Below the pieces are notes generated by a model, which worked only from the letters and a program-made list of their open reading frames with translations, had not been told where the DNA came from and did no database searches. From contig NC_013926.1 of the NCBI RefSeq assembly GCF_000025665.1, forward strand, positions 870,001 through 902,000: 32,000 nt of DNA, read 5' to 3'. Position numbers and translations under genes: made by a program. This DNA comes from Aciduliprofundum boonei T469. GTDB lineage: Archaea > Thermoplasmatota > Thermoplasmata > Thermoplasmatales > Aciduliprofundaceae. Shown piece after piece: positions 1,434 through 20,010 of this stretch (the first letter of the stretch is position 1; every line of letters starts with the position of its first letter).

Positions 1434-2356
1434 TTCGATTATCCTATGGTACAGCGGTTAAAATGGGTTTAAAAGAAGGAAAGATGCTTGCAGAACCTAC
1501 AACTGCTTACATAATGCTCGGGGAGAGATGCATATCCAATTGCCTATTTTGTGCTCAAAGAAGAGAAGGCAGAAAAGAAGGTTATTTATCACGAGTTTTG
1601 TGGCTCTCCTATACGGATGAGGTTCTTCGCAATTTAAGAGGATTCTCACGAGTGTGCTTTCAAACTCTTGATTATCCTGAGGTTGTGAATGATTTGAGTT
1701 CCCTACTTCCCCTATTGCCTTCCATTCCTGTTTCAGTTTCTATAGTTCCTATTTCTAATGAGGATATGAAGAGGTTAAAAGAGGAAGGTGTTGAAATTAT
1801 CAGTATTGCATTGGACGCTGCTACTAAGGAAATATTTGATGATGTTAAAGGGTACAAAGTCGGAAATCGCTTCACTTGGGAAGGGCATTGGAGAGCTTTG
1901 AAAGATGCAATTAAAATTTTTGATTCTGTGAATACACATTTAATTGTTGGATTGGGAGAGAGTGATAAAGCATTGTACAATATTATGGCGAGATTGAGTG
2001 ATATGGGAATATCCATAGCTTTATTCGCTTTTATGCCAGTTTTTGGAGGAAAGCAACCATCATTGCATAGATACCGGGTTATACAATTAATGCGTTATCT
2101 TTTTTCGAGGAACTACAGAAATTTTGCAGAGTTTGAAGATGAAAGAGTCATGGAAATCATAGTGCCGGAGGAAGAAAGGAAAAATATTATGAGAGGAATA
2201 CCTTTTCTAACCTCTGGATGCCCGGGATGTAATCGCCCTTTTTACAACGAGAGACCTGGGGGAAAGATTTACAACTATCCATTTTTACCAAAGAAGAATG
2301 TGGCAAGGGAATTGATTAAAGAATGCGAAGAATATGCTAAAATTATTTGGATTTAG
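1430..2356 (+). CDS. Radical SAM protein, BioB/HydE-like fold, specific function unknown
   Basis: It has a CX3CX2C cluster motif (CISNCLFC) about 35 residues from the N-terminus. HLIVGLGES is typical of biotin-synthase-like radical SAM barrels. There is a C-terminal Cys pair (GCPGCNRPFYNE). The start overlaps the trmY stop (ATGA at 1430-1433). Confidence 0.8.
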   Translation: MIRLSYGTAVKMGLKEGKMLAEPTTAYIMLGERCISNCLFCAQRREGRKEGYLSRVLWLSYTDEVLRNLRGFSRVCFQTLDYPEVVNDLSSLLPLLPSIPVSVSIVPISNEDMKRLKEEGVEIISIALDAATKEIFDDVKGYKVGNRFTWEGHWRALKDAIKIFDSVNTHLIVGLGESDKALYNIMARLSDMGISIALFAFMPVFGGKQPSLHRYRVIQLMRYLFSRNYRNFAEFEDERVMEIIVPEEERKNIMRGIPFLTSGCPGCNRPFYNERPGGKIYNYPFLPKKNVARELIKECEEYAKIIWI

Positions 2357-4187
2357 TTTCCTCACCAATAGTTCTTGCTTCCAAGGAGAAAATGTATTGT
2401 GAGGCATAGATCTCGTGGGATAGGAGATATGTTGAATAAACTATTGCCCATAGAGCTAGGAGCGGAGGTACAATAAGCCACCATTTATCCCAGTACCCTG
2501 TAAAATACGCGTTTGAAATCATCCATCCCCAAGTTGGAACCGTATAATTTCCAAATCCCAAGAATGATATGCCTACTTCAAGCAATAGTGCCATGGTCAC
2601 TGCACTAAGGGCATATACTGTCGATATTCCCTTTATTTCTGGAAATATGTGAACTAATATTATTCTCCAGTGTCCAGCTCCTGATAATTTTGCGCTTTCT
2701 ACGAATGCCTTTTCTTTAACAACCTTCGTATAATTTCTAACAGCTCTTGCTTCCAAGGGTGAGAGTGCAAATATGGAAGCCCATATAGTTGCTTCTATGT
2801 GATGAGATATGCCAAACAAATAAATCATAAGAGCTGCATAGCCGATCGCAGGTATGAACAGAAAAGAATCTGAGAGAAGAAGCAGTAATTCATCAGTAGT
2901 CCCGCCGAAATATCCTGCAATCACTCCCCAGAGTGTACCTAAGAGAAGAACTATTGCTCCGCTTACAAATGCAATATACAACTCGCTTCTAAAGCTCCAT
3001 AGGAGTTGAGAGAAAACATCCCTTCCGGCAAAATCGGTGCCCAGGATATATTTTTTACTTGGTGGTAGAGGAGTTATCATCTTTCCAGAATAGCTGTACT
3101 GTTGGACATCTTTTTGATTTTCCAAAATAGCTAAAAGATAGGTTGTATGTGACATCTCTGTAAGGAGGATGTTGTATACATTCACATCTTTTCCCCACTG
3201 GATAGCTCCATCTGTTAGTATAAATCCTATTTTTCCATTTTTGAAAATCACTCCTATGCCATCTATAAACGGGCTTGCTACATATTTCTTTACATCATCA
3301 ACTTTCCAAGAAAAACCGTTTTTGAGGACATCCACCTTCCCAAACACGCCAGATGGAGAATAAGCAAAAAGAATCCCTCCACGATACTCTAAGGATGTAA
3401 TTTCACATGGCATTTGTATATCTGCCCTCTTGCTTCCATTTTCTATGGATAATGCCTCTATTTCGTTATGAGAAGCTATGTATAATTTATCGTTTCCATA
3501 GATGGGCAAGAATATTGGATTTGATGTGAAATTTCCTCTTTTCTCCCACACAATTTTTCCATTGGATGTTATATCAATGATTTTATCGTGAAAGGATACA
3601 AAAATATGGTTGTAATCATAATGCAATCCTAAGGGTTTTTGATGCGCTACAATGTGCCATAATGGCTTTGTAGAGAATCCGTAAGGGCTGTATTGGAATG
3701 CGTATAAACCTGTGCTGTTGTAAGTAACAAACCCTGTAAAAGAAGAGAAGGGCGGATTGAGAATGTAGATAGAAACAGTATCGTTTATAGGGTATCTTAC
3801 AAGAGCGGTGCCTGAAAATACATAGATATAATTTTGGTTGTAAAACACAGGAAAGCCATGGGGATATATTCTAAGAATCTTTATGTCTGAATAGTTTTGT
3901 AATGGTAAATTCTCTTCAAATGTGATATTATGGTTCAGAATATTGTAATATATGAATTCAGAACTCTCGGTTATCATATAAAATTCATCTTCATAAGCGT
4001 TCATTCTAACTATTTTATAAGGAAATGAATAATTGGCAACTATTTGGGGTACAAATATATCTGTAGGTGGGGCTCTATAGCTCAGAGGTGGCCGTAGAGG
4101 CATTATGGGTACTAGGAGAGCAATAATTATGTAAGTGATAATCACGGCAATAGCGACTTTTCCCTTGAGAGATACTTTCAGTTTCAT
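2343..4187 (-). CDS. ABC transporter permease, OppC/DppC-like, with ~370-aa N-terminal extracytoplasmic beta-propeller-like domain
   Basis: One N-terminal TM helix (VAIAVIITYIIIALLVPIM) is followed by a Tyr/Asn-rich region. That region has many N-x-S/T sequons and PQQ/beta-propeller-like strands (ITSNGKIVWEK, LTDGAIQWGKD). A canonical OppC entry motif follows (ILGTDFAGRDVFSQLLWSFRSEL), then 5 more TM helices with the EAA-loop region (ESAKLSGAGHWRIILVHIFPE). The start is ATGA-coupled to the upstream permease. Confidence 0.85.
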   Translation of the reverse strand: MKLKVSLKGKVAIAVIITYIIIALLVPIMPLRPPLSYRAPPTDIFVPQIVANYSFPYKIVRMNAYEDEFYMITESSEFIYYNILNHNITFEENLPLQNYSDIKILRIYPHGFPVFYNQNYIYVFSGTALVRYPINDTVSIYILNPPFSSFTGFVTYNSTGLYAFQYSPYGFSTKPLWHIVAHQKPLGLHYDYNHIFVSFHDKIIDITSNGKIVWEKRGNFTSNPIFLPIYGNDKLYIASHNEIEALSIENGSKRADIQMPCEITSLEYRGGILFAYSPSGVFGKVDVLKNGFSWKVDDVKKYVASPFIDGIGVIFKNGKIGFILTDGAIQWGKDVNVYNILLTEMSHTTYLLAILENQKDVQQYSYSGKMITPLPPSKKYILGTDFAGRDVFSQLLWSFRSELYIAFVSGAIVLLLGTLWGVIAGYFGGTTDELLLLLSDSFLFIPAIGYAALMIYLFGISHHIEATIWASIFALSPLEARAVRNYTKVVKEKAFVESAKLSGAGHWRIILVHIFPEIKGISTVYALSAVTMALLLEVGISFLGFGNYTVPTWGWMISNAYFTGYWDKWWLIVPPLLALWAIVYSTYLLSHEIYASQYIFSLEARTIGEETKSK

Positions 4188-5776
4188 CTTCTCACCCTTG
4201 GATCAAGGAAGTAAATCACAATGTCTGAGAATATAGAAGCGGCTATCATTACTAATGAGAAATATATAATTGCAATTTGAATCTGAAATGGATTGCCGTT
4301 TATTGTACCTTTGAATAGAATTAGCCCAATTCCCTTTATGTGAAATATAACTTCTAAGAACACCTGTGCTGTCAAGATCCATCCAAAATTCAGCACCAAA
4401 TCTGTCATTGTAGGAATCATTGTACTTTTCTTTATGAATTTCTTAATCCTCTTTGGAGTTAATCCCACTGCCTGAAATGTTTTAACATAGGGCTCCATGT
4501 ATTCTCTGTTGGCTATAGAATGGGCTATCAAATAAGGTCTAGCAATGGTTAAAAGTGAGAGAATGAGAGAAGCAATAATGATTCTTATTCCCTCTTGCCA
4601 CCCATTTGTAGGAGAAACTAGAGCATCGTATAATAAAGGCCAGTTCTGGAATGTTTGTAAAATAACTAAAGATGCGTAGAAGGTTGGTATAGAGTATAAA
4701 GCTAAAAATATGGCAGCATATATGTCTAAAGAGCGAGGGCTCTTTTTGCGGATGGCCAAGTAGAGTGATGAGAAATATGTTATCACTGTAGTTAATATGA
4801 ATATTGTGAGAGACACAATAATGGCATTTTTAAGGTCTATGGGCTGTGTACCCCAGTTTACTCCCTTTGTTATTCCCCCCGTTAAAATTAGATGCCACCA
4901 GTTCAAGTACTGATCATACCAAGGTCTGTCAAGGTGATAGTATTTTATTATATAGAATCTCATAACTATATCTGATATCCCCCCAACTCTAACCTGTGGG
5001 GGTGGACCAAAAACCCAAAGAATGTAAAATAGGATGGTCAGGACTATAAAAAGTGCAAATAAATTTCTGAGTGTGCTCCTTATAAGAAGTTTTATACCTT
5101 TAACACGCCCCCCTCTAAATTTATATGCTATAAATACAAACACACCAATTAATGCGGCCAAGAATGAATAGGCATAAATGCTCATCCGGTAATAGTATTC
5201 CTCTCTGAATTTTATGATAATGGAGCTATCAAATCTCCCTTTAATTTTATTCTTCTCAGTAATTGAATCAATTAGATTGCTCTGTAGAATAGTATCGTTT
5301 TTCGGAAGGGCTATTGAGAACATACCTGAAACATCAGGAAGGCTTATCTTTAGAGTATGGTCATATGTGCCATTTAAATAAAATGTGAAATTAAAGCTTA
5401 TAGCGTAATATGATGAAGTGTTTACAGGCATAGGAAAACTATAATTCTCATACTTGTGTATCCCTTTTAAATTAACTATGGGATTTCTTCCATCTATAGT
5501 TAGGTTATGAAAAATCAAAAAATAATTTCCTGCAGGTGTGAAATTTAATTTCATCATATTTTCATCAAGCAACTTTAAAAATTCCGAGAAATCCAGGTAT
5601 CCAGAATGGTCTTTATCGTACTCTTTTTTTAATTGCGGAGAGAAAATCTGTTTTATAAATATATGTCCAGAGTATCTATCTTTAATTTCAGAATTAATAT
5701 TTGAGTTTTTAGCGTGAATTGAAGGTATTAGCAAGATTGAAATTATGAAAAGTACAATGATAATCTTTTTAATCAT
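4184..5776 (-). CDS. ABC transporter permease, OppB/DppB-like, with ~200-aa N-terminal extracytoplasmic domain containing an EF-hand loop
   Basis: It starts with a signal/anchor helix (MIKKIIIVLFIISILLIPSIHA) and a sequon-rich ectodomain. OppB hallmarks follow: LDRPWYDQYLNWWHLILTGG, the EAA-loop region EPYVKTFQAVGLTPKRIKKFIKKSTMIP, and the C-terminal DIVIYFLDPRVRR. Confidence 0.85.
   Translation of the reverse strand: MIKKIIIVLFIISILLIPSIHAKNSNINSEIKDRYSGHIFIKQIFSPQLKKEYDKDHSGYLDFSEFLKLLDENMMKLNFTPAGNYFLIFHNLTIDGRNPIVNLKGIHKYENYSFPMPVNTSSYYAISFNFTFYLNGTYDHTLKISLPDVSGMFSIALPKNDTILQSNLIDSITEKNKIKGRFDSSIIIKFREEYYYRMSIYAYSFLAALIGVFVFIAYKFRGGRVKGIKLLIRSTLRNLFALFIVLTILFYILWVFGPPPQVRVGGISDIVMRFYIIKYYHLDRPWYDQYLNWWHLILTGGITKGVNWGTQPIDLKNAIIVSLTIFILTTVITYFSSLYLAIRKKSPRSLDIYAAIFLALYSIPTFYASLVILQTFQNWPLLYDALVSPTNGWQEGIRIIIASLILSLLTIARPYLIAHSIANREYMEPYVKTFQAVGLTPKRIKKFIKKSTMIPTMTDLVLNFGWILTAQVFLEVIFHIKGIGLILFKGTINGNPFQIQIAIIYFSLVMIAASIFSDIVIYFLDPRVRR
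5582..5617 (-). other. Canonical 12-residue EF-hand Ca2+-binding loop inside the permease ectodomain
   Basis: The minus strand translates to DKDHSGYLDFSE followed by F. Every position satisfies the PROSITE-style EF-hand loop pattern as I recall it (D-x-[DNS]-x-[DENSTG]-[DNQGHRK]-x-[LIVMC]-[DENQSTAGC]-x-x-[DE]-[LIVMFYW]). Confidence 0.6.
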
Positions 5777-5859
5777 TAAGGAAGGGGATGATTTCAGAGA
5801 AGATAAATTTAACTATAAATTTGGCAAAAAAATTAATATTTTTAAAGAGATTTGTAACT
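5777..5859. promoter_or_regulatory. Divergent promoter region between the permease operon (-) and polB (+)
   Basis: This is an AT-rich spacer with several TATA-like boxes (aaatttatag / ttaaatttat around 5803-5820; aattaatattttta around 5830-5845). AAGGAAGGGG directly precedes the ATG at 5788. The attaatat box sits about 25 nt before the alternative ATG at 5860, which fits a leaderless start. Confidence 0.4.
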
Positions 5860-7611
5860 ATGAGAACTTTGTATTTCAAAACTCTTGCGAAAACTGAGAG
5901 CGGATATATAAATCCAAAAAAAGATAGCATTTATATGCTTGCTCTACAAACCAATAATATTAGGATTTTAAAAGGAAATGAAAAAGATATAATAGAAAAA
6001 TTCGTAGAAATTTTCAATGAGTACAATCCTGATCGAATTGTTGGATTTAAACAGGATACCGAAGATTTCCCGTTGCTCTACGAAAGGGCTAAGAGATATG
6101 ATATAAATTTAAATCTTGGTAGAGATGGGAGTGCTATAGATTTTTCTGGGAAATATTTTAGGGGTATAATTCTGAAGGAAACAAAAATTCAAGGGAGAGA
6201 AAATATAGACCTATTTGCCATAGCTTGGCGCGATTTTCCGAGATTGCCTACCAAGGAAATAGACGAGCTTGCCAATGCTTTAGAAGTTAAGGGATTTGAG
6301 AGAATCCCCCAGTTCAGAATTAGGGAAAAGAGTGATGAAGAGTTGGAATCGTATTTGAAAAACTATGTGAAAATAATTGTAGAGATAGCGGATGCCATAT
6401 TACCGTTTGAGGAGAGTATATCAGGTATATGTGGTATCCCAATTGACAGGCAAACGAGAATGACTGTGGGTGAATTGATAGATGTTGTTGTGGCCAGAGA
6501 GATGAAACGGAGAGGTATAGATAAGATGAAAGTGGGAAAATCCAAAAAGTATGAAGGGGGCTATGTATGGTTAAAGGAGCCAGGCGTGTATGAGAATATA
6601 ACCTATCTGGATTTTCAAAGCATGTATCCCAATATCATTAAAGCGTGGAACATCAGCCCTGAAACTGTGGACATGGGTGGGGGCGAGGAAGTGGAAATTG
6701 AAGGTGTTAAACATAAAATAAAAAAAGATGTTCGTGGTGTTATTCCAGAACTTGTTGATGATTTTCTATCCAAAAGATTGGAGTTAAAGAGAAAATTGAA
6801 GGATAAGTACGATAAGAGAATTGACGCTGAGCAGAAGGCCCTGAAGGTCATGGCAAATGCTATGTATGGTTATATGGGCTGGAATGGAGCATCATATTAC
6901 AATAGAAACGCCGCCGAATTGATTGCTGCTTTGGCTAGATATTACATAAAGAATGTGCAGAGAATTATAGAGGAAATGGGAGGCACAATAATTTATGTGG
7001 ATACTGATGGCATTCAATTTATTGGAGGAGATTGGAAGAAAATCATGAACAAAATCAACGATGAATATCCTCTAAATATTGAATTGGAGAGAATAGTGCA
7101 GCGGGGAGTTTATTGGACTAAGAAGAAGTATGCACATCTTTATGATGGTAAGGTAACTGGTGTAGGGGTAGAGTATATAAGGAGAGATTACCCCAAGATA
7201 ATAAAAGATGCACAGAGGCAAATTGTAGAGCATTTGCTTAAAGGGAATGTAGAAAGAGCGAGGGAGCTCAGGAGAAAATATAGGAATATGATAAAAGAAG
7301 GTAAATTTGAAATTGAAGATATTGCGGTGGTTGAGCAGTTAACAAAGAAACCGGAGGAATATGAGAAAGCCACGAAAGCCAGCATAGCTGCTAAAATTTT
7401 GATGGAAAATTACGGGATTGAAGTGCATAGGGGAATGTACATTTACATAGCGATAGTAAAGGGAGTTGGAGGTCCAACATATAGGGCTAGGCCTATCGAA
7501 ATGGTGAGAATTGAGGATTTAGATTTATCCTACTACCTTTCAATGTATGATGATACGATAAACAGAACATTTGAGCCCTTTAAAGTGTCTCCCACTAACC
7601 AGTGGTTTTGA
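5788..7611 (+). CDS. polB: Family B DNA polymerase, short form (PolB2/Dpo2-like): polymerase motifs intact, N-terminal domain absent, exonuclease motifs degenerate
   Basis: Motif A is YLDFQSMYPNII, motif B is KVMANAMYGYMG, motif C is YVDTDG (6994-7011). The KxY motif is WTKKKYAHL, and VEYIRRDYP is present. The Exo I position reads LYFKTLA instead of FDIET. Exo II reads GFKQDTEDFPLL (Asn lost). Exo III Y-x3-D is not recognisable (SYLKNY). An alternative start at ATG 5860 (MRTLYFK...) is plausible. Confidence 0.9.
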   Translation: MISEKINLTINLAKKLIFLKRFVTMRTLYFKTLAKTESGYINPKKDSIYMLALQTNNIRILKGNEKDIIEKFVEIFNEYNPDRIVGFKQDTEDFPLLYERAKRYDINLNLGRDGSAIDFSGKYFRGIILKETKIQGRENIDLFAIAWRDFPRLPTKEIDELANALEVKGFERIPQFRIREKSDEELESYLKNYVKIIVEIADAILPFEESISGICGIPIDRQTRMTVGELIDVVVAREMKRRGIDKMKVGKSKKYEGGYVWLKEPGVYENITYLDFQSMYPNIIKAWNISPETVDMGGGEEVEIEGVKHKIKKDVRGVIPELVDDFLSKRLELKRKLKDKYDKRIDAEQKALKVMANAMYGYMGWNGASYYNRNAAELIAALARYYIKNVQRIIEEMGGTIIYVDTDGIQFIGGDWKKIMNKINDEYPLNIELERIVQRGVYWTKKKYAHLYDGKVTGVGVEYIRRDYPKIIKDAQRQIVEHLLKGNVERARELRRKYRNMIKEGKFEIEDIAVVEQLTKKPEEYEKATKASIAAKILMENYGIEVHRGMYIYIAIVKGVGGPTYRARPIEMVRIEDLDLSYYLSMYDDTINRTFEPFKVSPTNQWF

Positions 7612-9088
7612 TTTTACCCCTAATCTTCACTGCCTTTCCCTTTTTCTGCTGGAGCATGTCAATATGGCTCATTTTTGCAATACCCCATCCCCTCAATTCA
7701 TCCTCGTATACTACGGCTACTTCATCCTCTTCCCTTATATCTTCTGTTGAATTTAGAATACCTGCTGCAAAAACATCTCCCTCTGGATAAAAATCGTCTA
7801 TGTATACGGTATATTTCTCATTTTTTGCCAAGCATTTTGCGGATTCTTCCGTGAGTGTTAGCATCCCCTTTTGAGGATTGTAACTGAATATTCTTTTCCT
7901 CTCTTTCCATATATTGAGCTGGTAGTATCTTCCCTTTATCTTTGCTTCATCCAATAACTCTTCGCAACATCCAAATTGGAATCTAGCCAAACTCTTGAAA
8001 TTCTCTCTCTCAAGCACATTCCTTGGGATATGGTAATCCAATTTTTTTGTTGATTTTTCTAGTTCTTCATAATCCTTACCCCAAATTGTATGTGCTCCGA
8101 AATCATTTAGGATATCCTCTAAGAATCTCATGCTCTCTGGTAAAAATGATATTATTTCCTCGTATTCAAACTTTGAAAGATACCATTCTAAGGTATCCCT
8201 TATCAATTTCTTCTCCTCTTCGTACCAATGTCCTATCACAGGTATGTCATAATTTTGGGCGGGATAGAACCTTTCAAGCTCCCTTGGTACAAGGGCCAAA
8301 GGAGAGGTTAAGATTACCTCGTGCATGGTGGCTTTTATATGCTCTCTCATTTCTCTGTGCGATTTTGATATTGAATATGGCTTCTTAGCACTGCAGGGTA
8401 TGAGAAGCAAATATTTAGCCCAAGACGGTTTTTTATACCTATCTTTCAAACGCCCGATCCATCTCCTCACATCGGGCCTATAAAGAGAGTCCAATGTTAC
8501 AGCATTTATCTGAGGATTCCAAATGGGATAAAAATTTTCAATTAAAGAATAGTAGTTCATATCTAGATACCTCAATATTTCCTTGGCTTTGTTATCCGCT
8601 ATGCTCTCTACAAGCTCTCTGAGCAATCCTTTTTTCAAAGCAATCTTTGTTTGAGAGATAATAAATTTTGATATTGGCGGGGCATCATCAATTCTTCCTA
8701 CCAATGAATAATCTTCTATGTGCTCTAAAGAATCATCAAATATATCATACCCAAGATAAGTTAGGATAGGAATGAGATGAGGTGGAGCGCCCGGAGCGTA
8801 AAACAATTTATCAAATCCAAGTTTGTATCTGAGCTTAATAGTGTAATCTACAAAATTTGTAGTATTTCTTAAGCGAGAATTTATATGTGGTATCAGATAA
8901 ATATCATCCGCAATTTTTATTTCTCCTTCGTTCATCTCTGGTGTGTAAAGTACATCCCTTCCAATTTCAAAATTAAGAAATTTGAATGTATTTCCATTGA
9001 ATTCTATATCCTTTCCTGTCTCTAAGAGCAATGGAGTTTCCATCGTCCCTCTTGTAATTTTTGCTAATCCAAATCTTTTAACGAGCAT
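7595..9088 (-). CDS. arcS: Archaeosine synthase ArcS (TGT-like N-terminus, DUF5591 core, C-terminal PUA domain)
   Basis: It contains the ArcS signature PC-X3-KPY-X2-S-X2-H exactly (IPCSAKKPYSISKSH). The C-terminal region is PUA-like (DVFAAGILNSTEDIREEDEVAVVYEDELRGWGIAKMS). The ATG lies 4 nt after the stop of the giant gene. Confidence 0.9.
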   Translation of the reverse strand: MLVKRFGLAKITRGTMETPLLLETGKDIEFNGNTFKFLNFEIGRDVLYTPEMNEGEIKIADDIYLIPHINSRLRNTTNFVDYTIKLRYKLGFDKLFYAPGAPPHLIPILTYLGYDIFDDSLEHIEDYSLVGRIDDAPPISKFIISQTKIALKKGLLRELVESIADNKAKEILRYLDMNYYSLIENFYPIWNPQINAVTLDSLYRPDVRRWIGRLKDRYKKPSWAKYLLLIPCSAKKPYSISKSHREMREHIKATMHEVILTSPLALVPRELERFYPAQNYDIPVIGHWYEEEKKLIRDTLEWYLSKFEYEEIISFLPESMRFLEDILNDFGAHTIWGKDYEELEKSTKKLDYHIPRNVLERENFKSLARFQFGCCEELLDEAKIKGRYYQLNIWKERKRIFSYNPQKGMLTLTEESAKCLAKNEKYTVYIDDFYPEGDVFAAGILNSTEDIREEDEVAVVYEDELRGWGIAKMSHIDMLQQKKGKAVKIRGKIKTTG

Positions 9089-9092
9089 AGAA

Positions 9093-12000
9093 TCACTCGA
9101 AATTAAACGGAGTGCCGCATTTCAGACATTTTCCTGCTCTCTTCGCACAAGGCAAATGGTAAACTGCACCACAGGTATCGCATATTACAATGTCCATGCC
9201 TGGAAGTATCGTTCCTCTGCAGAGAGTGCATTTAACCTTTTCTTTATTCTTCTCGATATGGAAACCTTTCTTTGATATTTTGTACTCTACTTCAAATTCC
9301 TCCTCGTATTTCTTTCCATCAAATCTTTCATAACTAATTTTTACATTTATTTTTTCTCCCTTTCCTTCTGCAAGGAAGCTCTCAACAATTTCCTCGGAAT
9401 CTTTTGCAATTTTCATTATTGTTATATCGCCCTCGGTCTTTAAAGAGCCGTTTAAGCTTAAGTGTACATTACGAGCATCCGTGCTACCTTCATTCCTAAC
9501 TCTGATTTTTGCTAAATACTTATCATTTACCTTTTGAGTACTGTCTATGGCTACAACTAATTTCGGTTTGAGTTTTTCAATCTCATCCCAAATTTCATTC
9601 TCTATATCTTCCATAACTTTTATTCCCTTCTCCAAATCCTCCTGCGAGGATAAAGCATCCTTTAATCTTTTTATGTATGAATCCATATTCAACCCGAGAG
9701 AAATGGCGGATTTGATTAATTCTTTGAGTTCCATTGCCTTCTTGTTGAACTCTGCTACTCTATTGCGATACTCACCTACATACTTTATCGCATCTTCGTA
9801 AATTTTTATCGCACTCTCATAGTTCCCCTTTTCTACATTCTCTAAAATATTCCTTTCGTACTCTTCTGCTTTCTTTTTGCTGTACTTCATAACCATTTCT
9901 TTTGCCCTTGCTGCTCTATCTTTAGTGTATTCCTTAATATAAGTTTCAAAGTTCTTCTCGAGCTCTTCAAGCTCGCTCATGGCTATGTCATAATCCATAT
10001 CATTTAACTCATCCATCAATTTTGATGCCCTATCTCTATAATCTCCCAAGTTCAATCCAAAAGTCTCAAATTTATTTAATTCATTCATGAATTCCTCGAT
10101 ATCGTCTCTTATTTTTTGTTTAATGATTTCAACCATCTTATCTTTAAGAGCTTCATAATATTCTAAAAATTCCTTCGGGCTATCTTTGAGCTTTTCTAAT
10201 TTACCTCTCTCTTTATTCAAATCAATATTGGCCTTAATCTTTGTCTCTCCAATAATCTTACTCATCCTCTCAAACTCATCCATCTTATCCTTCATTATAT
10301 TTGCAACTATGCTAAGCGCTTTCTCTTTGAGTTTAGGTATTAAGGAGTTTAAAGCAACGACATCTTTGTTTGCAAAGGCATTGTTTATCTCTTTGATATT
10401 ATCTTCTAGTTCATCTCTCAAATCGAATTCTATGATGGGTTTTAGAATCTCTTCGTATCTCCTTCTATACTCTCCTATAAACTCTTCAATCTTCTTTCTT
10501 GCCTCCTTATGAGCTTCATTTACAAGCTTGAGTGCAGAATCATAATGTAAGCCCTGCAACTCTTTTTTTGCATTGGCGAGCGGGATTAGAACATTCCTCA
10601 TATCTATACCAAGGGCTTTGCCCTGCTCAATATACCTTTTGATCTCTTTATTCTTATCCTTGATTATTTCAATTATTTTCTCAATATTCCAAAGCTTTTC
10701 ACTAACATTCATGGCTTTGTCTATTGCTTCCCTGTACTTCTCATTCAAAAACAGGCTCTTAGCGTTTCTATACTCTGAAATAATATCCTTGGGTATTAGT
10801 CCCTGCATCTTTTTCATCTTCACATCCAGAGTTTTTAAAATTCCATAGGCAGTGTTTTTCTGCATACCTACATTTTCAATCTCTTCCATTGCATTCAAGG
10901 TGAGAGTCAAAGAATCCCTATAATTCCCTTTCTTCATAGAGGATTTTGCCCTAACAAGCATAGATTCTGCCGTGGTAATATTCTCACCCATTCTTCTCAT
11001 TCTTGTTAATTCTAGTTCAACATCATTTATCATGCTCTCAATTTTCTCTTTAATCCCTTTCTCGATCTCTTTAGCCAAATCCTCGAGTCCCTTCTTTCTG
11101 TGTTCTATGTTCTCTGATTTTTCTAGCTCTTTAGCCCGCTCCAAATAGGGCTTTGTGTCAATTCCAAGGGATGAAGCTACAGTTATCAATCTTCCAATTC
11201 TGTTCTCCAGATCCATTAGTTTCATTTTCTCTCCATGTATCTTCTTTATCTCGCTCTCAAGGTTCTGGAGCATCGAGAAAGCTTCTTCTACATTCCCTTC
11301 CCAGAATTTCTCTTTGCTGGCAGCTATTGGGGAATCATCAACATTCACTCCCAAATCCCCCAAATCTGATATTAGCTTTTCAAGACGATTTACATAGTTA
11401 TTGAAAATAATTTCAATGGATTTTTTTAATCTCTCAATAGTTTTCTTTCCTATCTCTTCCAGATTCTCATACTTTCTCTCCTTATATCTTATGAAGAAAT
11501 CCTCTGTGATAGTTAAATAATCCTCTTTGAAATTGAAATCTCTCATAATCTTTCCTATACTCTCAATTTCCCTGCGAATCACATTAATTCTTCCTTCAAT
11601 TTCAATTGATTTAGCTAAATCAAAACCATTCTTTATGCTCTCTTCAATATCTTCAAATTCATTGTTCTCTATTTTTCTTTCTATTTCCCTTATTAGCTCT
11701 TCCAATTTTTCAACATTGTATCCCAAATCTAAAAGCTCATTCTTTCTCTTCTCTAACTCATCTTTCATTGAGAGGGCTTTATTCATTTTATTCATTAGAT
11801 CTTTAATTCTCTCATCAATCTCTGCAGTGTATTTTATGACATCCTGGTATCTTTTATCTTTTAAACTCTCTGCCGCCATATTTAGCATATCTATGATCCC
11901 GTTCTTTTCTAAATCTATCTTCATCTTACTGGCTTTATCTGCCGAATCCTTGACGGAATCATACGCTTTTTGAGCTAGGTTTTGAGAAAGGGATTCAATT

Positions 12001-13889
12001 ATCACATTGCAATCTTTTAGATTTTTCTCAACATTCTCTAGGTCTTTTCTCTCCAAAGATTCTTTTGCTTTGTTTAAAAGCTCCTCTACCTTCTCCGTAT
12101 CCTCTCCCAAATCTTTCAAAAATGAAATACTGGTTTCCGCTTCTTTAATCATTTTTTCATATTTCTCTCTCTCAATATTGAAAATTGAATCTTGGAGTTC
12201 TATAAAACTATCTAAAACTTTTTCAATTTCCCCCTTCTCTATAAGCTCGAAGACACTATTAATCTTTTTGTCTATCTCCTTCACCTTGTATTTCTTAAAA
12301 TCTTCAAGTTTGTTTCTGATATCTTTGTAAATTCTATCGTATAATTTTTCTTCAATTTTTCTTAGCACGATTATGGAATCTTTGTAATTCTCATCCTTAA
12401 GAAGTTTTTCAACATTTTCCAGCTCCACTTTTATATCCCTCAAATCAATCTCTGCACTAATACCCTTGTTGAGTATTGAAGATAAATCATTGTACAATGT
12501 ATTTGCTATATCTCTCAAACTGAATATAATCAATTTTTTAAGTTCGTCGACCATCTTTTCCGCATCTTCTGGATTTTTCTCCAGAGTAGCTTCAATATTC
12601 TCTATTTTATCTTCAACTCCTTCAAGTATTATATTCTCCTTTTTTAGTTCTTCATTGGATTTTTTAAGCTCTTCAATCTCTATTTTTAGCTGGGAATAGA
12701 GGTTCATTTTCCTTTCTAACATTTGAAGGGCTTTTAGGATGGTATCATACGCTTTTTTATGCTTTCCTATTTTGAGGAAGTTTTTGGCATTATCAATCAT
12801 CCCTAAATAAGGTGAAATATCAATACCTTTCTTCTTAGCATCAAGTAGCTTATCTCTTGCATTCTTCATAAGTTCCAATACCTTGTGTAATTTTATCTTC
12901 TCAGCTTCTTCCGTTGCCTTTTTTACCAGTTCTACGGCATTATCAAGATCATCATTTTCATAAGCGATTTTTGCTTTGTTGAAGATTTCCATAGGGCCAC
13001 TCATGTCCTCATTCATCTCTTCTCCTTCTCTAATCAAGAATTCTGATATGTCCAATAATTTTGTGAAAAACAGTTTAAAAGAATCTTTGGCAGATTCTAA
13101 AAATTCTTTCGATATCTTTATTGCGGATGAATAATCTCCAGATTCCAACGCACTGAGTGCATCTTTCTTCTTGTCCAAATCTATGGATAAAGAGTAATGG
13201 GCTGATTTTGCCAGATTTATAAGTTTATCCCCCTCTTTTATATTATTTTCAACAATATTTTTTGCAGAACTTTTTATCCTCTCCTCTATCTTTTTAAGTT
13301 GTGCAAGAACATCCTGAGGATTTCCCTCTATTTTATCGATCTCGTCCCTTACCCATTCAAAACCTTCAATACTTACTACTTTAGCTAAAAGCTCTCTCTT
13401 TCTTCTCTCCACCACATTTTTTAATGAGGAGGATATTTTTTCATTTATATCTTGAAGAATTTTCAAGCTTGAAGCAAAATCTGAAGAGAACTTCGATCTC
13501 GCTTCTTCTAAGTATGCCTTTAATCTTGCAGAATCTTCAACATTACCGGATGATAGAATCTCATCAATTTTCTTTGCCTCATCTTCAAATATTTTTTCAA
13601 TATCTTTCTGAATATCCTTGTAGAGATTTTCTAATAAGCTTAATGCCCTATCAAAATCTTTAACCTCGAAGGAGCTCTTTGCATTTTTTAGTTTTTCTTC
13701 ATAACTCTTTGTGTTTTTGTAATTTTTAAGCGTTGCAATTCCCTGCTCAACATCTTTTATATATTTCTCGCATTTCTCTCTCTTCTCCTTGATTGCCTGT
13801 GCCTTCTTTACAAGCTCCCTCTCGATTTTTATCCCGCTAAGGTATGGACTTGGCAATTTCAAACCTCCTATACATTCATTCTCTTTCAA
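9093..13889 (-). CDS. Giant (up to 1598 aa) K/E/I/L-rich helical-repeat protein with C-terminal CARDB-like beta-sandwich and C4HC3 zinc finger; no signal peptide, TM segment or P-loop seen
   Basis: The 4.8-kb ORF is uninterrupted. The opposite strand yields only short S/F/L-rich ORFs. No in-frame ATG occurs before codon 292, so initiation must be non-ATG. Candidates are TTG at 13889 (11 nt after the ftsZ stop) or TTG at 13856, which lies 6 nt after a perfect GGAGGT (13863-13868). Domain content is described in separate features. Confidence 0.85.
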   Translation of the reverse strand: MKENECIGGLKLPSPYLSGIKIERELVKKAQAIKEKREKCEKYIKDVEQGIATLKNYKNTKSYEEKLKNAKSSFEVKDFDRALSLLENLYKDIQKDIEKIFEDEAKKIDEILSSGNVEDSARLKAYLEEARSKFSSDFASSLKILQDINEKISSSLKNVVERRKRELLAKVVSIEGFEWVRDEIDKIEGNPQDVLAQLKKIEERIKSSAKNIVENNIKEGDKLINLAKSAHYSLSIDLDKKKDALSALESGDYSSAIKISKEFLESAKDSFKLFFTKLLDISEFLIREGEEMNEDMSGPMEIFNKAKIAYENDDLDNAVELVKKATEEAEKIKLHKVLELMKNARDKLLDAKKKGIDISPYLGMIDNAKNFLKIGKHKKAYDTILKALQMLERKMNLYSQLKIEIEELKKSNEELKKENIILEGVEDKIENIEATLEKNPEDAEKMVDELKKLIIFSLRDIANTLYNDLSSILNKGISAEIDLRDIKVELENVEKLLKDENYKDSIIVLRKIEEKLYDRIYKDIRNKLEDFKKYKVKEIDKKINSVFELIEKGEIEKVLDSFIELQDSIFNIEREKYEKMIKEAETSISFLKDLGEDTEKVEELLNKAKESLERKDLENVEKNLKDCNVIIESLSQNLAQKAYDSVKDSADKASKMKIDLEKNGIIDMLNMAAESLKDKRYQDVIKYTAEIDERIKDLMNKMNKALSMKDELEKRKNELLDLGYNVEKLEELIREIERKIENNEFEDIEESIKNGFDLAKSIEIEGRINVIRREIESIGKIMRDFNFKEDYLTITEDFFIRYKERKYENLEEIGKKTIERLKKSIEIIFNNYVNRLEKLISDLGDLGVNVDDSPIAASKEKFWEGNVEEAFSMLQNLESEIKKIHGEKMKLMDLENRIGRLITVASSLGIDTKPYLERAKELEKSENIEHRKKGLEDLAKEIEKGIKEKIESMINDVELELTRMRRMGENITTAESMLVRAKSSMKKGNYRDSLTLTLNAMEEIENVGMQKNTAYGILKTLDVKMKKMQGLIPKDIISEYRNAKSLFLNEKYREAIDKAMNVSEKLWNIEKIIEIIKDKNKEIKRYIEQGKALGIDMRNVLIPLANAKKELQGLHYDSALKLVNEAHKEARKKIEEFIGEYRRRYEEILKPIIEFDLRDELEDNIKEINNAFANKDVVALNSLIPKLKEKALSIVANIMKDKMDEFERMSKIIGETKIKANIDLNKERGKLEKLKDSPKEFLEYYEALKDKMVEIIKQKIRDDIEEFMNELNKFETFGLNLGDYRDRASKLMDELNDMDYDIAMSELEELEKNFETYIKEYTKDRAARAKEMVMKYSKKKAEEYERNILENVEKGNYESAIKIYEDAIKYVGEYRNRVAEFNKKAMELKELIKSAISLGLNMDSYIKRLKDALSSQEDLEKGIKVMEDIENEIWDEIEKLKPKLVVAIDSTQKVNDKYLAKIRVRNEGSTDARNVHLSLNGSLKTEGDITIMKIAKDSEEIVESFLAEGKGEKINVKISYERFDGKKYEEEFEVEYKISKKGFHIEKNKEKVKCTLCRGTILPGMDIVICDTCGAVYHLPCAKRAGKCLKCGTPFNFE
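9117..9230 (-). other. C4HC3 zinc-finger module (PHD / RING-CH-like spacing) at the C-terminus of the giant protein
   Basis: Residues 1554-1591 read CTLC-x12-CDTC-x4-H-x2-C-x6-CLKC. That gives eight ordered Zn ligands, C-x2-C-x12-C-x2-C-x4-H-x2-C-x6-C-x2-C. Confidence 0.65.
9279..9569 (-). other. CARDB-like beta-sandwich domain of the giant protein
   Basis: Residues ~1441-1537 are KPKLVVAIDSTQKVNDKYLAKIRVRNEGSTDARNVHLSLNGSLKTEGDITIMKI...INVKISYERFDGKKYEEEFEVEY. They show alternating beta-strand periodicity and the v.V.N.G...A.NV.v.L motif typical of CARDB / NPCBM-associated domains. Confidence 0.5.
9570..13742 (-). repeat. About 23 tandem, highly degenerate ~62-codon (~186-nt) protein-level repeats
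   Basis: The anchor position is the Y/F/hydrophobic residue of the [GKE]-[ND]-[YF]-x-x-[AS]-h motif. It recurs at residues 79,138,191,253,315,377,440,502,555,617,681,745,807,867,928,990,1052,1116,1177,1241,1300,1357,1419, with spacings of 53-64, mostly 61-64. Nine units also carry an LG-[IVLY]-[DN] motif 19-22 residues before the anchor (G355,595,723,847,909,968,1094,1278,1399). The repeats are not conserved at the DNA level. Confidence 0.7.
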
Positions 13890-13900
13890 GATTTAAATTT

Positions 13901-14947
13901 TTACCTTTGAGATCTCTCCATCTCGTAAGTCTTCAAGCTCTTTACTTCATACTCTTCCCCAAGAATTGGGATTTTTATATCGGTCAAAAGTACCAGTACT
14001 CTCATTTTATTTTCAAATTGCGGATCTATCCTTGCCCCGATCATAAGATTTGCATTATCTTTCATCAAGGAGGATATGGCATCTACGGCGGAATATACGG
14101 CTGAAAGTGGTACATTCTCTCCCGTTGTAATATGTATCACACCCCCACTTGCTTTTGAGTAGTCCATGTCCATAATGAGAGGCCTGTTTAAAGCATCTAC
14201 AACTATTTTCCTCGGATCACTGGCATCTCCTTCCCCTATTAGTATGGTGGAGTATCTTCCATTCTTCATTATCCTCTTCAAATCCTCCAGATCTATATTC
14301 ATCAAAGATGGCTTGGTGAGAACATCCACAAAGGACATTATTGTATAGCTTATAAGCTGGTCCATAACAATGAATGCCTTTTTGATTGGTAAATTTGGGG
14401 CAATTTCCATAAGTTTGTCATTTTCCAAAACTATTAGTGTGTTGGATAATTCAACGATTCTTTTCAACCCTTCTTTTGCCTTTATGAACCTCGCTCTTTC
14501 AATCTTGAACGGCATGGTGGCTATCGTTATAACCAATGCTCCTTTTCTCTTTGCAATTTCTGCAATTATGGGAGTTGCCCCTGTGCCTGTGCCCCCTCCA
14601 AGCCCAGTTGTTAGAAAAACAATATCTATGCCATCAAATATATTTTCAAGCTCCTTTGATGCAAGGATTGCACTCTTTTCTCCTATTTCCACCAAGCCCC
14701 CAGAGCCCAAGCCCTTTGTGTATTTTTTCAAAAGAATCTTTTTATCTGCCTCAACAGTTCTTAGGTTATTTATATCTGTATTAATCGCCACAGTGGGTAC
14801 GGATAGTCCTAATTTTTTCATCCTGCTTACAGCATTGCATCCAGCTCCGCCTATCCCCACAACCATGATATTAATTTTCTCCTCGTAGAGCTCCCGCTCA
14901 ACAAGAGTGTATGAGGAAGCCCTTCTTATGAGGGATTCTATGCTCAA
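13901..14947 (-). CDS. ftsZ: FtsZ-family tubulin-like GTPase (FtsZ2-like by synteny with an upstream RHH gene)
   Basis: VVGIGGAGCNAV (G1), AINTD, and the tubulin signature GGGTGTG (14579-14599) are present. IVLENDKL and the T7 loop NIDLEDLKRIM (N-x-D-x-x-D retained) are also present. The start must be TTG at 14947: it abuts the RHH stop (TAATTG), and GGAGGGTGA lies 7-11 nt upstream. The first in-frame ATG would delete the residues preceding strand S1. Confidence 0.9.
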   Translation of the reverse strand: MSIESLIRRASSYTLVERELYEEKINIMVVGIGGAGCNAVSRMKKLGLSVPTVAINTDINNLRTVEADKKILLKKYTKGLGSGGLVEIGEKSAILASKELENIFDGIDIVFLTTGLGGGTGTGATPIIAEIAKRKGALVITIATMPFKIERARFIKAKEGLKRIVELSNTLIVLENDKLMEIAPNLPIKKAFIVMDQLISYTIMSFVDVLTKPSLMNIDLEDLKRIMKNGRYSTILIGEGDASDPRKIVVDALNRPLIMDMDYSKASGGVIHITTGENVPLSAVYSAVDAISSLMKDNANLMIGARIDPQFENKMRVLVLLTDIKIPILGEEYEVKSLKTYEMERSQR

Positions 14948-15331
14948 TTAACTCTCACCCTCCACAATTTCTTTTTTAATTCCCTCTTCAATCTCCTTCT
15001 TTGCAAGAGTGGATATTTGTCTTCTAACATACTCCCTAACGGCTGTTCTTATTGCATCATCCATATCCACTGCCTCTCCTGCCTCCACGAGCTTGACTAG
15101 CATCGCAACAGTGCCCTTTGGCAGATCTACACTTATCTTCTCAATATTGCGAGGCGCAAATTTCTCAGCTAGAAAATTCTCAATTGCAGTACGAACAACC
15201 TCAGATAAATTTTTGAACTCACCACTCTTGACTAACTCTTCCATTTTTTCCGCCGCATTGCGGGAGAGCCTGATTGTAATCCTTATTGAATCGGACATTT
15301 TAACTGCCTCTTTCCATGTTTTGTCTGACAA
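14948..15331 (-). CDS. Tandem ribbon-helix-helix (CopG/MetJ-type) DNA-binding protein, CdrS/CdrL-like
   Basis: One chain carries two RHH units: IRITIRLSRNAAEKMEELVKSGEFKNLSEVVRTAIENFL and EKISVDLPKGTVAMLVKLVEAGEAVDMDDAIRTAVREYV. The more likely start is ATG at 15298 (MSDSIRITI...), preceded by GAGG 8 nt upstream. The ORF-track start at 15331 is a TTG lying about at the predicted transcription start. Confidence 0.8.
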   Translation of the reverse strand: MSDKTWKEAVKMSDSIRITIRLSRNAAEKMEELVKSGEFKNLSEVVRTAIENFLAEKFAPRNIEKISVDLPKGTVAMLVKLVEAGEAVDMDDAIRTAVREYVRRQISTLAKKEIEEGIKKEIVEGES

Positions 15332-18877: not shown

Positions 18878-19447
18878 TTAAAGTTTCTTATCCTCACCCT
18901 TGCAGAGTTTTATAAAGTGCTTTACACCTTCTAATGGTCCCTTTGCAAGAAGGATATCATCTGGTAATACTTTGGTGTTCTCAGTAGGCCCGAATATCCA
19001 TTGCTTCCCCCTCTTTATCGCAATTACCCACATGCCTGTCTCGCTTGCAAGATTTAATTCTCCGAGAGTTTTATTTGCTAAAATACTGTTTTCCCTAACT
19101 TTTGCTCTAGTTATTGTAATATCACTCTCCTTGATACTCTCTTTTATCACGGGATGAGGTTCAATTCCACGGAGCACCACATCTGCAATTTGCACTGCCG
19201 AATCTGATATTGCCTCAATACTCGTTGCAAGGCGTATTAAAATTAAAGCAGGATAAGGATTTTTCTCCTCTATTGCCTGCTTTATTGCCTCTTCTTCAAG
19301 CTGGTAATACCTCTTATCAATTTTCTCTTCTAAGTATTTCACTTCTTCTGCAATCTCCTTATTATTGAATATCAACGCAGAGTAAGCCAAATCAACCATC
19401 AATTCTGATATATTTTTCATCTCAATTATCATCTCGCCTAATCCCAA
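18878..19447 (-). CDS. PhoU-like plus TrkA-C (RCK_C) domain protein, paralog 2
   Basis: The N-terminal PhoU-like helices are ELMVDLAYSALIFNNKEIAEEV ... ATSIEAISDSAVQIADVVL. The C-terminal TrkA-C motif is TLGELNLASETGMWVIAIKRGKQWIFGPTENTKVLPDDILLAKGP. The probable TTG start at 19447 is preceded by GGGGTGAGGA. The gene overlaps its upstream paralog by 10 nt. Confidence 0.8.
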   Translation of the reverse strand: MGLGEMIIEMKNISELMVDLAYSALIFNNKEIAEEVKYLEEKIDKRYYQLEEEAIKQAIEEKNPYPALILIRLATSIEAISDSAVQIADVVLRGIEPHPVIKESIKESDITITRAKVRENSILANKTLGELNLASETGMWVIAIKRGKQWIFGPTENTKVLPDDILLAKGPLEGVKHFIKLCKGEDKKL

Positions 19448-20010
19448 CTTTCCTCACCCCTTGCTACCCTGTCTAAGAATTCATAGCCATCCTCTGTGCC
19501 CCTTATTATGAGCAAATCATCCGCTTTTATCCTCACATGATCTTCTGGGTCGTAAATCCAGTTGCGTCCCCGTTTTATTGCTATTATTCTTACTCCACTC
19601 TCTACTTCAATATTTAATTCTCCTAAGGTTCTGTTTACTATGCTTGAATTGGGATAAACCTTGACCACATGTATCTTTTCATCAGCCTTCATAAACAAGC
19701 TCGGTAGAAAAGGCCTTGCAGTTATATCTAAATCGAGGAGATATGCAATATCCGCAGCTGCATTTGCCAGATTGTTGGATGAGTCAGCCATCTGCAATAT
19801 TCCTGCAAGTTGTTCTGCCTCATCAGGGGTATTTGCAGCAAGCATGCTCACTATTCTTATCTTGTAGGTTAACTCGCTTATCTCTTTCTCCAATTTTTCC
19901 ACTTCTTTTGCCAGGTCCTCACTATCTAAAATTATGGCTGAATAGGCCAAATCAACGATAAGCTCCGATTTTTCCTTGATTTCTACAAGCAAATCTTTGA
20001 CATTTTCCAT
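19438..20010 (-). CDS. PhoU-like plus TrkA-C (RCK_C) domain protein, paralog 1
   Basis: It has the same architecture as the downstream gene: ELIVDLAYSAIILDSEDLAKEV ... TLGELNIEVESGVRIIAIKRGRNWIYDPEDHVRIKADDLLIIRGT. Confidence 0.8.
   Translation of the reverse strand: MENVKDLLVEIKEKSELIVDLAYSAIILDSEDLAKEVEKLEKEISELTYKIRIVSMLAANTPDEAEQLAGILQMADSSNNLANAAADIAYLLDLDITARPFLPSLFMKADEKIHVVKVYPNSSIVNRTLGELNIEVESGVRIIAIKRGRNWIYDPEDHVRIKADDLLIIRGTEDGYEFLDRVARGEESWD

Follow-up and report, generated by a model that had tools for sequence, protein, structure and literature searches.

A 62-residue helical repeat forms a predicted rod with a RING finger end in a giant protein encoded beside ftsZ in Aciduliprofundum boonei

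Introduction

Spectrin rods are composed of serial antiparallel three-helix bundles, the third helix of each bundle running on into the following bundle as its first helix, and EzrA, a spectrin-like regulator of FtsZ built from serial three-helix bundles, binds FtsZ directly (PMC4243239). A comparable shared-helix design was described for the FG-repeat of Embp, which rises by 70 Å per 125 residues, corresponding to 3.5 nm per 62.5 residues (PMC7587433). A 32,000-nucleotide stretch of the Aciduliprofundum boonei T469 genome (contig NC_013926.1, positions 870,001 to 902,000 of the forward strand; hereafter the window, with positions counted from its first letter) contains the gene of an archaeal protein of similar design, which is referred to here as the giant protein.

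9093 to 13889, minus strand: gene of the giant helical-repeat protein; longest open reading frame (ORF), 1598 codons plus stop

The giant protein was composed of 23 tandem units of about 62 residues, an immunoglobulin (Ig)-like β-sandwich, and a C-terminal zinc finger. Apart from the final 50 residues, which fall in Prok-RING_1, no part of it belongs to a named family. The serial three-helix-bundle design is known, whereas the unnamed repeat family, its period, its occurrence in archaea, the combination of domains, and the suggestive division-gene context are new. The predicted rod indicates that serial three-helix bundles are possible with a period about 60% as long as that of spectrin.

The accessory proteins known for archaeal FtsZ-based division are SepF, CdpA, the PRC-barrel CdpB proteins, and the regulator CdrS (PMC12126565, PMC10120694, PMC7439475). 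They are only a handful, and none of them is a long structural element. The giant gene is a concrete candidate for a division element, as it encodes a length-conserved predicted rod of about 65–80 nm directly behind ftsZ and a cdrS-like ribbon-helix-helix (RHH) gene, and a homologue (AciM339_0080) is found in a cultured relative, Aciduliprofundum sp. MAR08-339. Independently of its function, the protein represents a large family (at least 825 clusters at 50% identity, with members of up to 7,686 residues) that was missed by domain databases. The repeat was clean enough for contact prediction from the repeats alone, and the family can therefore be modelled and annotated.

The 62-residue repeat

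The sequence-only reading of this DNA had proposed about 23 degenerate helical repeats of about 62 residues between positions 9570 and 13742, which correspond to residues 50–1440. This proposal was borne out by profile self-alignment, structure prediction, a unit profile, and the spacing of units across the family. Residue numbers follow the 1598-residue ORF, and subtraction of 11 gives those of the 1587-residue protein described below.

The ungapped BLOSUM62 autocorrelation of the giant protein showed a modest peak at a lag of 62 (z = 3.5), which was lower than those at the heptad lag of 7 (z = 6.5) and at a lag of 19 (z = 5.3). An alignment of the giant protein with 26 homologues of 1514–1637 residues and 25–96% identity (alignment A1, 27 sequences) was compared with itself by hhalign. 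The comparison gave 38 suboptimal alignments with E-values down to 5e-39, which were shifted by 60–64, 122–124, 176–190, 240–250, 300–311, 365–374, 422–435, and 490–499 residues, all multiples of about 62. Among 25,387 aligned residue pairs, 88% were in register within 0.05 of a unit, compared with 10% expected.

A 62-position unit hidden Markov model (HMM), which was trained on distant relatives only with the orthologue group of the giant protein left out, detected 11 in-register units in the giant protein (148.5 bits) and none in 400 global or local shuffles of it. The unit HMM matched no other ORF of at least 150 residues across 16 loci, including a 1179-residue SMC coiled coil. When the unit HMM was iterated, 3,122 units were found in 178 family proteins, and the start-to-start spacing had its mode at 62 (1,003 cases). 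A BLASTP search of 124-residue pieces against the giant protein returned hundreds of matches at all offsets and was discarded, as the biased composition and the very small database made its E-values meaningless.

When single units were compared all against all by hhalign, pairs at 60–95% probability formed a connected network; units 2, 6, 7, 12, 16, 19, and 21 were too diverged to be linked one by one. No alternation of odd and even units was seen in this unit-by-unit comparison. A repeat of about 186 nucleotides was not found at the DNA level in the giant gene, and a homologue of 25% identity (P0026) was collinear with the giant protein over its full length. The array is thus ancient, as had been suggested from its divergence in DNA.

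Two sequence signatures had been proposed for the unit. The LG-[IVLY]-[DN] motif was recovered as the family consensus ELGIDV, positioned 22 residues ahead of the tyrosine. Of the G-[ND]-Y-x-x-A signature, the strict form, G-[ND]-Y-x-x-[AS], occurred only three times in the giant protein, and two more units carried G-N-V-E-[DE]-[SA].

Unit fold and rod architecture

Structures were predicted by AlphaFold2 for residues 1–760 and 700–1598, each with a 13-sequence alignment. The models had mean predicted local distance difference test (pLDDT) values of 85.6 and 84.9, respectively. The predicted template modelling scores of 0.42 and 0.50 were low, which is expected for an elongated object. In both models, long helices (35–41 residues) strictly alternated with short helices (11–16 residues). 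The long helices started at residues 79, 138, 191, 253, 315, 377, 440, 502, 555, 617, 681, and 745 in the first half and at residues 810, 867, 928, 990, 1052, 1116, 1177, 1238, 1300, 1357, and 1419 in the second half, and an extra long helix was located at residues 15–54. These starts agreed within 3 residues with the hydrophobic anchor positions that had been read from the translation.

9561 to 13847, minus strand: repeat array, residues 15–1443; 24 long and 23 short helices over both models, which make up 23 three-helix bundles, staggered and each about 62 residues in length

In each unit, a long helix (about 38 residues) was followed by a loop of the ELGIDV type, a short helix (about 15 residues), and a turn of three residues of the G-D/N-Y type. 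The family consensus of the 3,122 units was YEEALELAKEAEEEAEKALREKAEEAIEEAEELIEEAK-ELGIDV-SEAEELLEEAKEALE-EGD.

Contacts were derived by mean-field direct coupling analysis (DCA) of 1,590 adjacent unit pairs treated as double units (Meff 1,518). Three ladders, the classes of which cover only about 17% of the possible pairs, accounted for 29 of the 30 strongest couplings. In the first ladder, positions 27–38 of the long helix were coupled with positions 47–58 of its own short helix in an antiparallel manner. In the second, positions 40–57 of the short helix and loop were coupled with positions 3–22 of the next long helix, also antiparallel. In the third, positions 23–33 of the long helix were coupled in parallel with positions 4–19 of the next long helix, with a shift of about 18 residues. 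Identical couplings recurred in both halves of the double unit. The short helix was thus shown to pack antiparallel on its own long helix over the last ~12 residues and on the next one over the first ~20, clamped between the C-terminal half of the former and the N-terminal half of the latter. The chain is a continuous series of staggered three-helix bundles with up-down-up topology, each long helix being shared by two of them. The helical hairpin with a long connecting helix that the sequence-only reading had suggested was therefore found both in the alternation of the AlphaFold2 helices and in the couplings.

The predicted secondary structure together with the contact ladders also favors the elongated rod that had been envisaged. 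If half a long helix is taken as about 19 residues of 1.5 Å each, the rise comes to about 2.8 nm per unit, and the Embp value is 3.5 nm; a rise of about 2.8–3.5 nm per unit would give a rod of about 65–80 nm in length.

Intermolecular coiled coils or filaments of the SMC or intermediate-filament type, in place of an intramolecular bundle rod, would also be in line with the strong heptad signal, with the composition of the giant protein, which is rich in Lys, Glu, Ile, and Leu, and with the SMC–ScpA gene pair upstream of the homologue in locus L015. However, conserved loops with Gly, Asp, or Pro broke the helices at intervals of 62 residues, the DCA ladders were fully accounted for by intramolecular hairpins, the unit HMM did not recognize the SMC coiled coil, and no ATPase head domains were found in the giant protein. 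This arrangement is accordingly very unlikely, and the rod of intramolecular bundles is preferred.

Comparison with known helical-repeat proteins

No match to Pfam or NCBIfam was found in the rod, and no relative of the repeat was found in the PDB. TPR, MIT, spectrin, and EzrA, which the sequence-only reading had named for comparison, gave no Pfam match above threshold. The Foldseek search of the PDB with residues 1–760 returned nothing significant, the best match being dynein (E = 0.27). With residues 700–1598, a match to an Integrator subunit passed the threshold (E = 6.8e-4) but was rejected as not convincing, its root-mean-square deviation being 57.5 Å. Sequence-profile matches in the PDB to consensus TPR, designed bundles, and ApoA-I were marginal and were judged to be compositional.

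The likeness to TPR and MIT that had been noted from the sequence was local. The short helix, the G-[DN]-Y turn, and the x-x-A start of the long helix of the giant protein resembled the junction of TPR helices A and B and helices 1 and 2 of the MIT domain. In contrast to TPR, the period was 62 rather than 34 residues, the helices were unequal, and the units were staggered along the axis instead of being stacked side by side in a solenoid. The Pfam TPR models scored below their gathering cut-offs on the giant protein (TPR_2, 15.1 against 27 bits; TPR_8, 13.9 against 25.7; TPR_16, 13.9 against 32.7), and consensus-TPR chains in the PDB reached only an E-value of 1.2e-3 on one unit. The MIT model (PF04212) gave no match at E ≤ 1 on the giant protein, and a threefold idealized consensus of the unit scored 21.6 bits against its cut-off of 30. 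Membership of the repeat in TPR or MIT was therefore ruled out by the period of 62 and the sub-threshold scores. The same idealized consensus gave above-threshold matches to PIG-S, YqaH, DUF1771, and other Pfam models, which were disregarded as spurious because three identical low-complexity matches were summed.

The closer structural analogy was with serial three-helix bundles of the spectrin and EzrA type. As in spectrin, α-actinin, and dystrophin (PF00435), the giant protein has up-down-up bundles joined by a continuous helix, a degenerate repeat sequence with heptad character, and the predicted form of an elongated rod of the kind that serves as a spacer or cross-linker. It differs from them in its period (62 against about 106 residues), in its bundle helices (about 19, 15, and 19 residues against about 30 each), and in its ends, where an archaeal protein carries an Ig-like domain and a RING finger in place of actin-binding or EF-hand domains. 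PF00435 gave no match at E ≤ 1, and no spectrin, α-actinin, or plakin chain was present among the Foldseek matches in the PDB.

EzrA and the giant protein are both prokaryotic and, by prediction for the latter, cytoplasmic, with serial three-helix bundles on continuous helices, and both have a link to FtsZ, which is direct binding in EzrA and only operon position in the giant protein. The bacterial EzrA is anchored in the membrane by its N-terminus, contains five repeats of about 100 residues, ends in a four-helix bundle, and forms an arch of 12 nm, whereas the giant protein has no transmembrane (TM) segment, 23 repeats of 62 residues, a RING end, and about three times the size. No Pfam match to EzrA (PF06160) was found in the giant protein.

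Ebh and Embp are likewise giant rod proteins of three-helix bundles sharing a long central helix, with about 62.5 residues and about 35 Å per bundle and low sequence identity between repeats. They are, in contrast, secreted bacterial adhesins anchored to the cell wall, and their true repeat is 125 residues, containing two different bundles (FIVAR and GA) and a perpendicular short helix. The Pfam models FIVAR, GA, and DUF1542 had no match in the giant protein, and Ebh and Embp were not among the Foldseek matches.

Start site and general properties

The ORF finder placed the start at the TTG codon at position 13889. The TTG at 13856 is the likely true start, giving a product of 1587 residues, because a Shine-Dalgarno-like GGAGGT is located at 13869–13864, six nucleotides before it, and because the protein then begins with the conserved M-P-S-P-Y-L-S, with which homologues also start (MPSPYLS). 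A homologue of 96% identity (P0001) was also 1587 residues in length. The giant protein has a mass of about 184 kDa and an isoelectric point of 5.5. No Walker A motif was found in it, nor any hydrophobic stretch of TM grade or signal-like character (maximum 19-residue hydropathy of 1.24), in agreement with what had been read from the translation. The lack of such stretches points to a cytoplasmic location.

Ends of the rod and conserved patches

The β-sandwich and RING finger at the C-terminus, like the ftsZ neighbour and the family size, went beyond the sequence-only reading. Five stretches of the giant protein were distinguished by conservation or fold.

13800 to 13856, minus strand: conserved N-terminal peptide, residues 12–30, PSPYLSxIKxEKELxKKA

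12387 to 12947, minus strand: most conserved stretch of the rod, units 5–7, residues 315–501; mean column identity of 0.60–0.71 against about 0.5 elsewhere

10545 to 10922, minus strand: second conserved stretch, units 16–17, residues 990–1115; mean column identity of 0.65–0.69

9288 to 9560, minus strand: Ig-like (CARDB-like) β-sandwich, residues 1444–1534, seven predicted strands

9099 to 9248, minus strand: Prok-RING_1 zinc finger, residues 1548–1597; PF14446 at 54.9 bits against a cut-off of 29.1

In the N-terminal peptide, residues Pro13, Pro15, Tyr16, Glu25, and Ala30 were nearly invariant in alignment A1. Residues 1–14 had pLDDT values below 50 and were predicted to be disordered, and the first long helix followed. 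Distant relatives carried a related N-terminus, [GS]x[YF]LKxxQLxKQLEEKAKEA.

Judged by its conservation, the stretch of units 5–7 may be a site at which a partner binds. The best match of many distant relatives lay at profile positions of about 273–405, at the same place in the protein, which argues for a binding site that is fixed in position. In units 16–17, residues Gln1010 and Ala1014 were invariant within a conserved MQKNTAYGILK segment, and the long helix was broken at residues 1004–1006 (between helices 291–304 and 308–328 of the second AlphaFold2 model).

The β-sandwich was the only part of residues 700–1598 with convincing Foldseek matches in the PDB, namely the C-terminal barrel of transglutaminase-2, TRAP subunits, and FlaF (E = 7e-4 to 6e-3). 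Relatives carried a weak Pfam CARDB match.

The last 50 residues form a bona fide member of Prok-RING_1 with the ligands Cys1554, Cys1557, Cys1570, Cys1573, His1578, Cys1581, Cys1588, and Cys1591, which were invariant in 27 of 27 sequences. This domain makes up 3% of the giant protein and is attached to a repeat rod without a Pfam or NCBIfam entry. With a column identity of 0.82, against about 0.5 in the rod, the RING finger was the most conserved part. The protein stopped right behind it (…KCGTPFNFE). In P0027, P0030, P0045–P0047, P0060, P0068, and other relatives, the RING was followed by a short basic tail, K-K-K-x-(A/S)-L-K-(L/I)-G, which could be a membrane-targeting or partner-binding peptide.

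The conservation of the RING raises the question of a giant E3-like ligase or adaptor, in which the rod would recruit substrates and the RING would recruit a charged carrier of a ubiquitin-like protein (an E2 or the archaeal SAMP/UbaA system). Such a protein would resemble the giant RING and HECT ligases of eukaryotes, in which the body consists of helical repeats, and the above-threshold match to PF14446, the eight invariant zinc ligands, and the C4HC3 order, which is reported to be typical of prokaryotic RINGs (PMC11354881), are consistent with it. Of 177 family proteins, 83 carried a RING; it was missing from about half of the family, including the giants of 7 thousand residues, and RING- and PHD-type treble clefs also serve as plain protein-binding modules. 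A possible carrier gene was located beside one RING-bearing homologue (P0030).

L009, 3656 to 4327, minus strand: ubiquitin-like (Ubl)–E2 fusion gene, 223 residues, in a Thermoplasmatota metagenome-assembled genome (MAG); divergent from the gene of P0030

The fusion matched Rad60-SLD at 24.2 bits and UQ_con at 39 bits. However, it was an orphan that found only itself among 5.8 billion clusters, and it had no counterpart in L010 and L011, which are syntenic loci from close relatives, or in the other 14 loci overall. Neither the 32-kb window nor any of the other 13 loci contained an E1, E2, Ubl, or JAB gene. Judged from these loci, a ligase or adaptor function is considered unlikely, and a plain scaffolding function of the rod and its ends is favored over it. 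The fusion gene in L009 was accompanied by two genes with no recognized function, which were not present in L010 and L011.

Genomic neighbourhood and proposed role

The giant gene was located on the minus strand between ftsZ and a gene for an ArcS-like protein, with an RHH gene in front.

14948 to 15331, minus strand: RHH gene, 127 residues, abutting ftsZ; RHH_1 match at 4.7e-11, in a CdrS-like position

13901 to 14947, minus strand: FtsZ gene, 348 residues; Pfam Tubulin and FtsZ_C, TIGR00065 at 309.6 bits against a cut-off of 295.2

7595 to 9088, minus strand: ArcS-like gene, 497 residues, DUF5591 and PUA; starts 4 nucleotides past the stop of the giant gene

The order of the four genes was RHH, ftsZ, giant gene, and arcS, with gaps of 0, 11–44, and 4 nucleotides, the stop of ftsZ being 44 nucleotides upstream of the likely giant start at 13856. 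The small RHH gene lies directly upstream of ftsZ and is co-oriented with it, as in the cdrS-ftsZ2 division locus, which is a documented division operon (PMC7439475, PMC8406309). The best NCBIfam match of the RHH protein was CdrS (52.8 bits, below the cut-off of 100). The ArcS-like protein also scored below the cut-offs of the NCBIfam ArcS models (410 against 600 and 337 against 440). At 127 residues, the RHH protein was about twice the length of haloarchaeal CdrS and contained a second RHH-like stretch (a match to the ORF56 family at residues 66–102); it may be a tandem or extended regulator of the CdrS type.

The same four-gene block was present in L001, L003/L004, L012, and L013, where the giant proteins were 36–83% identical and the flanking genes differed. 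The pair of giant gene and arcS was kept in L003, L006, L012, L013, L014, and L015, with a 4-nucleotide overlap of the genes in L014 and L015, and in the deeper relatives (L006, L014, and L015) it was all that persisted of the block. Of all the genes beside the giant gene, arcS was conserved most deeply. Still more distant relatives kept neither ftsZ nor arcS beside it, and in two of them (L009 and L010) a gene of QueH, a family of 7-deazaguanine tRNA modification, was directly downstream. The neighbours were housekeeping genes, and an origin of the giant gene in a defence system or mobile element was rejected.

Total length and unit number were kept among homologues down to 25% identity. Compared with L003, the rod was 36–37% identical, against 66% for FtsZ, 63% for ArcS, 64% for the family-B DNA polymerase (PolB) encoded nearby, and 85% for the RHH protein. 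As its length is kept while its sequence drifts, the giant protein behaves like a spacer.

The giant protein is accordingly proposed to be a cytoplasmic rod scaffold of about 184 kDa that would act as a fixed-length strut or spacer, possibly at the FtsZ ring, and this reading is given a probability of about 0.45. The scaffold would join partners of the C-terminal sandwich and RING to partners of the N-terminal peptide and of the two patches at residues ~315–501 and ~990–1115. More speculatively, in the Aciduliprofundum lineage it may be co-expressed with the CdrS-like RHH protein and FtsZ and may be located at the division ring, where it would tether or cross-link FtsZ filaments, as EzrA and spectrins do on theirs. 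The role at the ring is a speculative one, suggested by operon position in one clade and by the analogy with EzrA.

Several observations weigh against this proposal. Adjacency to ftsZ was limited to the Aciduliprofundum-like clade and was not present in homologues of at most 25% identity (L005–L011, L014, and L015). The more deeply kept neighbour, arcS, functions in tRNA modification and is hard to reconcile with a role in division, and the RHH match to CdrS was under its cut-off. The strong conservation of the RING finger points to an activity rather than to mere structure.

The position of arcS could instead suggest that the giant protein works with the tRNA 7-deazaguanine (archaeosine) machinery or in another RNA-related process. 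The pair with arcS was found in every clade with an N-terminus of the MP[ST/N]PY type, with the gap of only 4 nucleotides in the window, and QueH adds two more distant relatives. Against this, no RNA-binding domain was found in the giant protein with Pfam, L005, L007, L008, and L011 had neither arcS nor QueH adjacent, and operons of compact archaeal genomes often mix unrelated housekeeping genes. To our knowledge, a rod of 180 kDa has no precedent in tRNA modification. Such a function is highly improbable, and the strut or spacer remains the preferred interpretation of the locus.

In L015, smc and scpA were located upstream of the giant gene on the same strand (L015, 137–4523), with a divergent gene of RNA polymerase subunit L between them and the giant gene. 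The presence of these cell-cycle-related genes may be a coincidence.

The wider family

Thirty homologues were found, nearly all of 1578–1637 residues. The closest genome loci belonged to Aciduliprofundum MAGs, with giant proteins of 78–83% identity, and AciM339_0080 of Aciduliprofundum sp. MAR08-339 was included in a cluster of 49% identity. When the repeat region (A2) was used as a profile in an exhaustive search, 825 clusters matched at E ≤ 1e-3, of which 361 reached E ≤ 1e-10; clusters were defined at 50% identity, and 825 is a lower bound on the family size. Many members were of 1.43–1.64 thousand residues with the same sandwich and RING end, and others were giants of 2–7.7 thousand residues, such as P0034 (7,274 residues, 58 units detected) and P0036 (7,686 residues, 64 units detected). 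All full-length members that bear a name were annotated as hypothetical proteins and came from Thermoplasmata, Candidatus Thermoplasmatota, or Aciduliprofundum, and no description of the family was found in the literature searched on Prok-RING, PF14446, or giant Thermoplasmatota proteins.

A distribution of this kind would also suit a general cortical or membrane skeleton of Thermoplasmatota, with a spectrin-like lattice under the membrane and the ftsZ adjacency as a matter of local gene-order history. Many Thermoplasmatota are wall-less. The family is widespread, all its named full-length members belong to this phylum, most loci have no division gene nearby, the members range from 1.4 to 7.7 thousand residues as for struts of different lengths, and the basic tail of many relatives is a possible membrane-binding amphipathic peptide. 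However, the giant protein itself lacks this tail, no lipid- or filament-binding domain was identified, and the four-gene block with ftsZ survived rearrangements of its flanks in its clade. A general skeleton is therefore rather unlikely as an alternative to the strut or spacer of the Aciduliprofundum locus.

A broader conjecture, which is doubtful at present, is that the 62-residue unit defines an unnamed cytoskeletal class across Thermoplasmatota. Its members would be "mini-spectrin" struts from about 65 nm (1.5 thousand residues) to well over 180 nm (7.7 thousand residues), and in these archaea, many of which have no rigid wall, they would build a skeleton at the division ring or the cortex. 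The RING end would couple this skeleton to an assembly step that is ubiquitin-like or otherwise mediated by zinc fingers, and the class would be an independently evolved analogue of spectrin and EzrA.

The giants P0034, P0036, P0038, P0039, and others, in which 58–64 or more units could be detected, were all annotated as hypothetical. Some giant members carried N-terminal zinc ribbons (e.g. MPICQQCGTAVPDG...) or several internal β-sandwiches instead of a C-terminal RING. In the locus of P0026, a second very large gene followed arcS (L006, 9881–14246; more than 1670 residues, cut by the end of the locus), and its product had CARDB and several faint zinc-ribbon matches and no 62-residue units.

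Other genes in the window

The family-B DNA polymerase gene was located next to arcS on the opposite strand (5788–7611, plus strand). Its product of 607 residues had a partial exonuclease-domain match (residues 63–149), and the orthologue in L003 was 581 residues in length. From its length, which is unusually short for a replicative PolB, it may be a degenerate or specialized paralogue. Two unusually long ABC-type permease genes with BPD_transp_1 matches were located at 4184–5776 and 2343–4187 on the minus strand (530 and 614 residues, respectively), and the former had an EF-hand-like match at residues 51–70. On the other side of the four-gene block, tandem paralogous genes with PhoU and TrkA_C domains (189 and 190 residues) were located at 18878–20010 on the minus strand, beside a DUF134/HTH gene.

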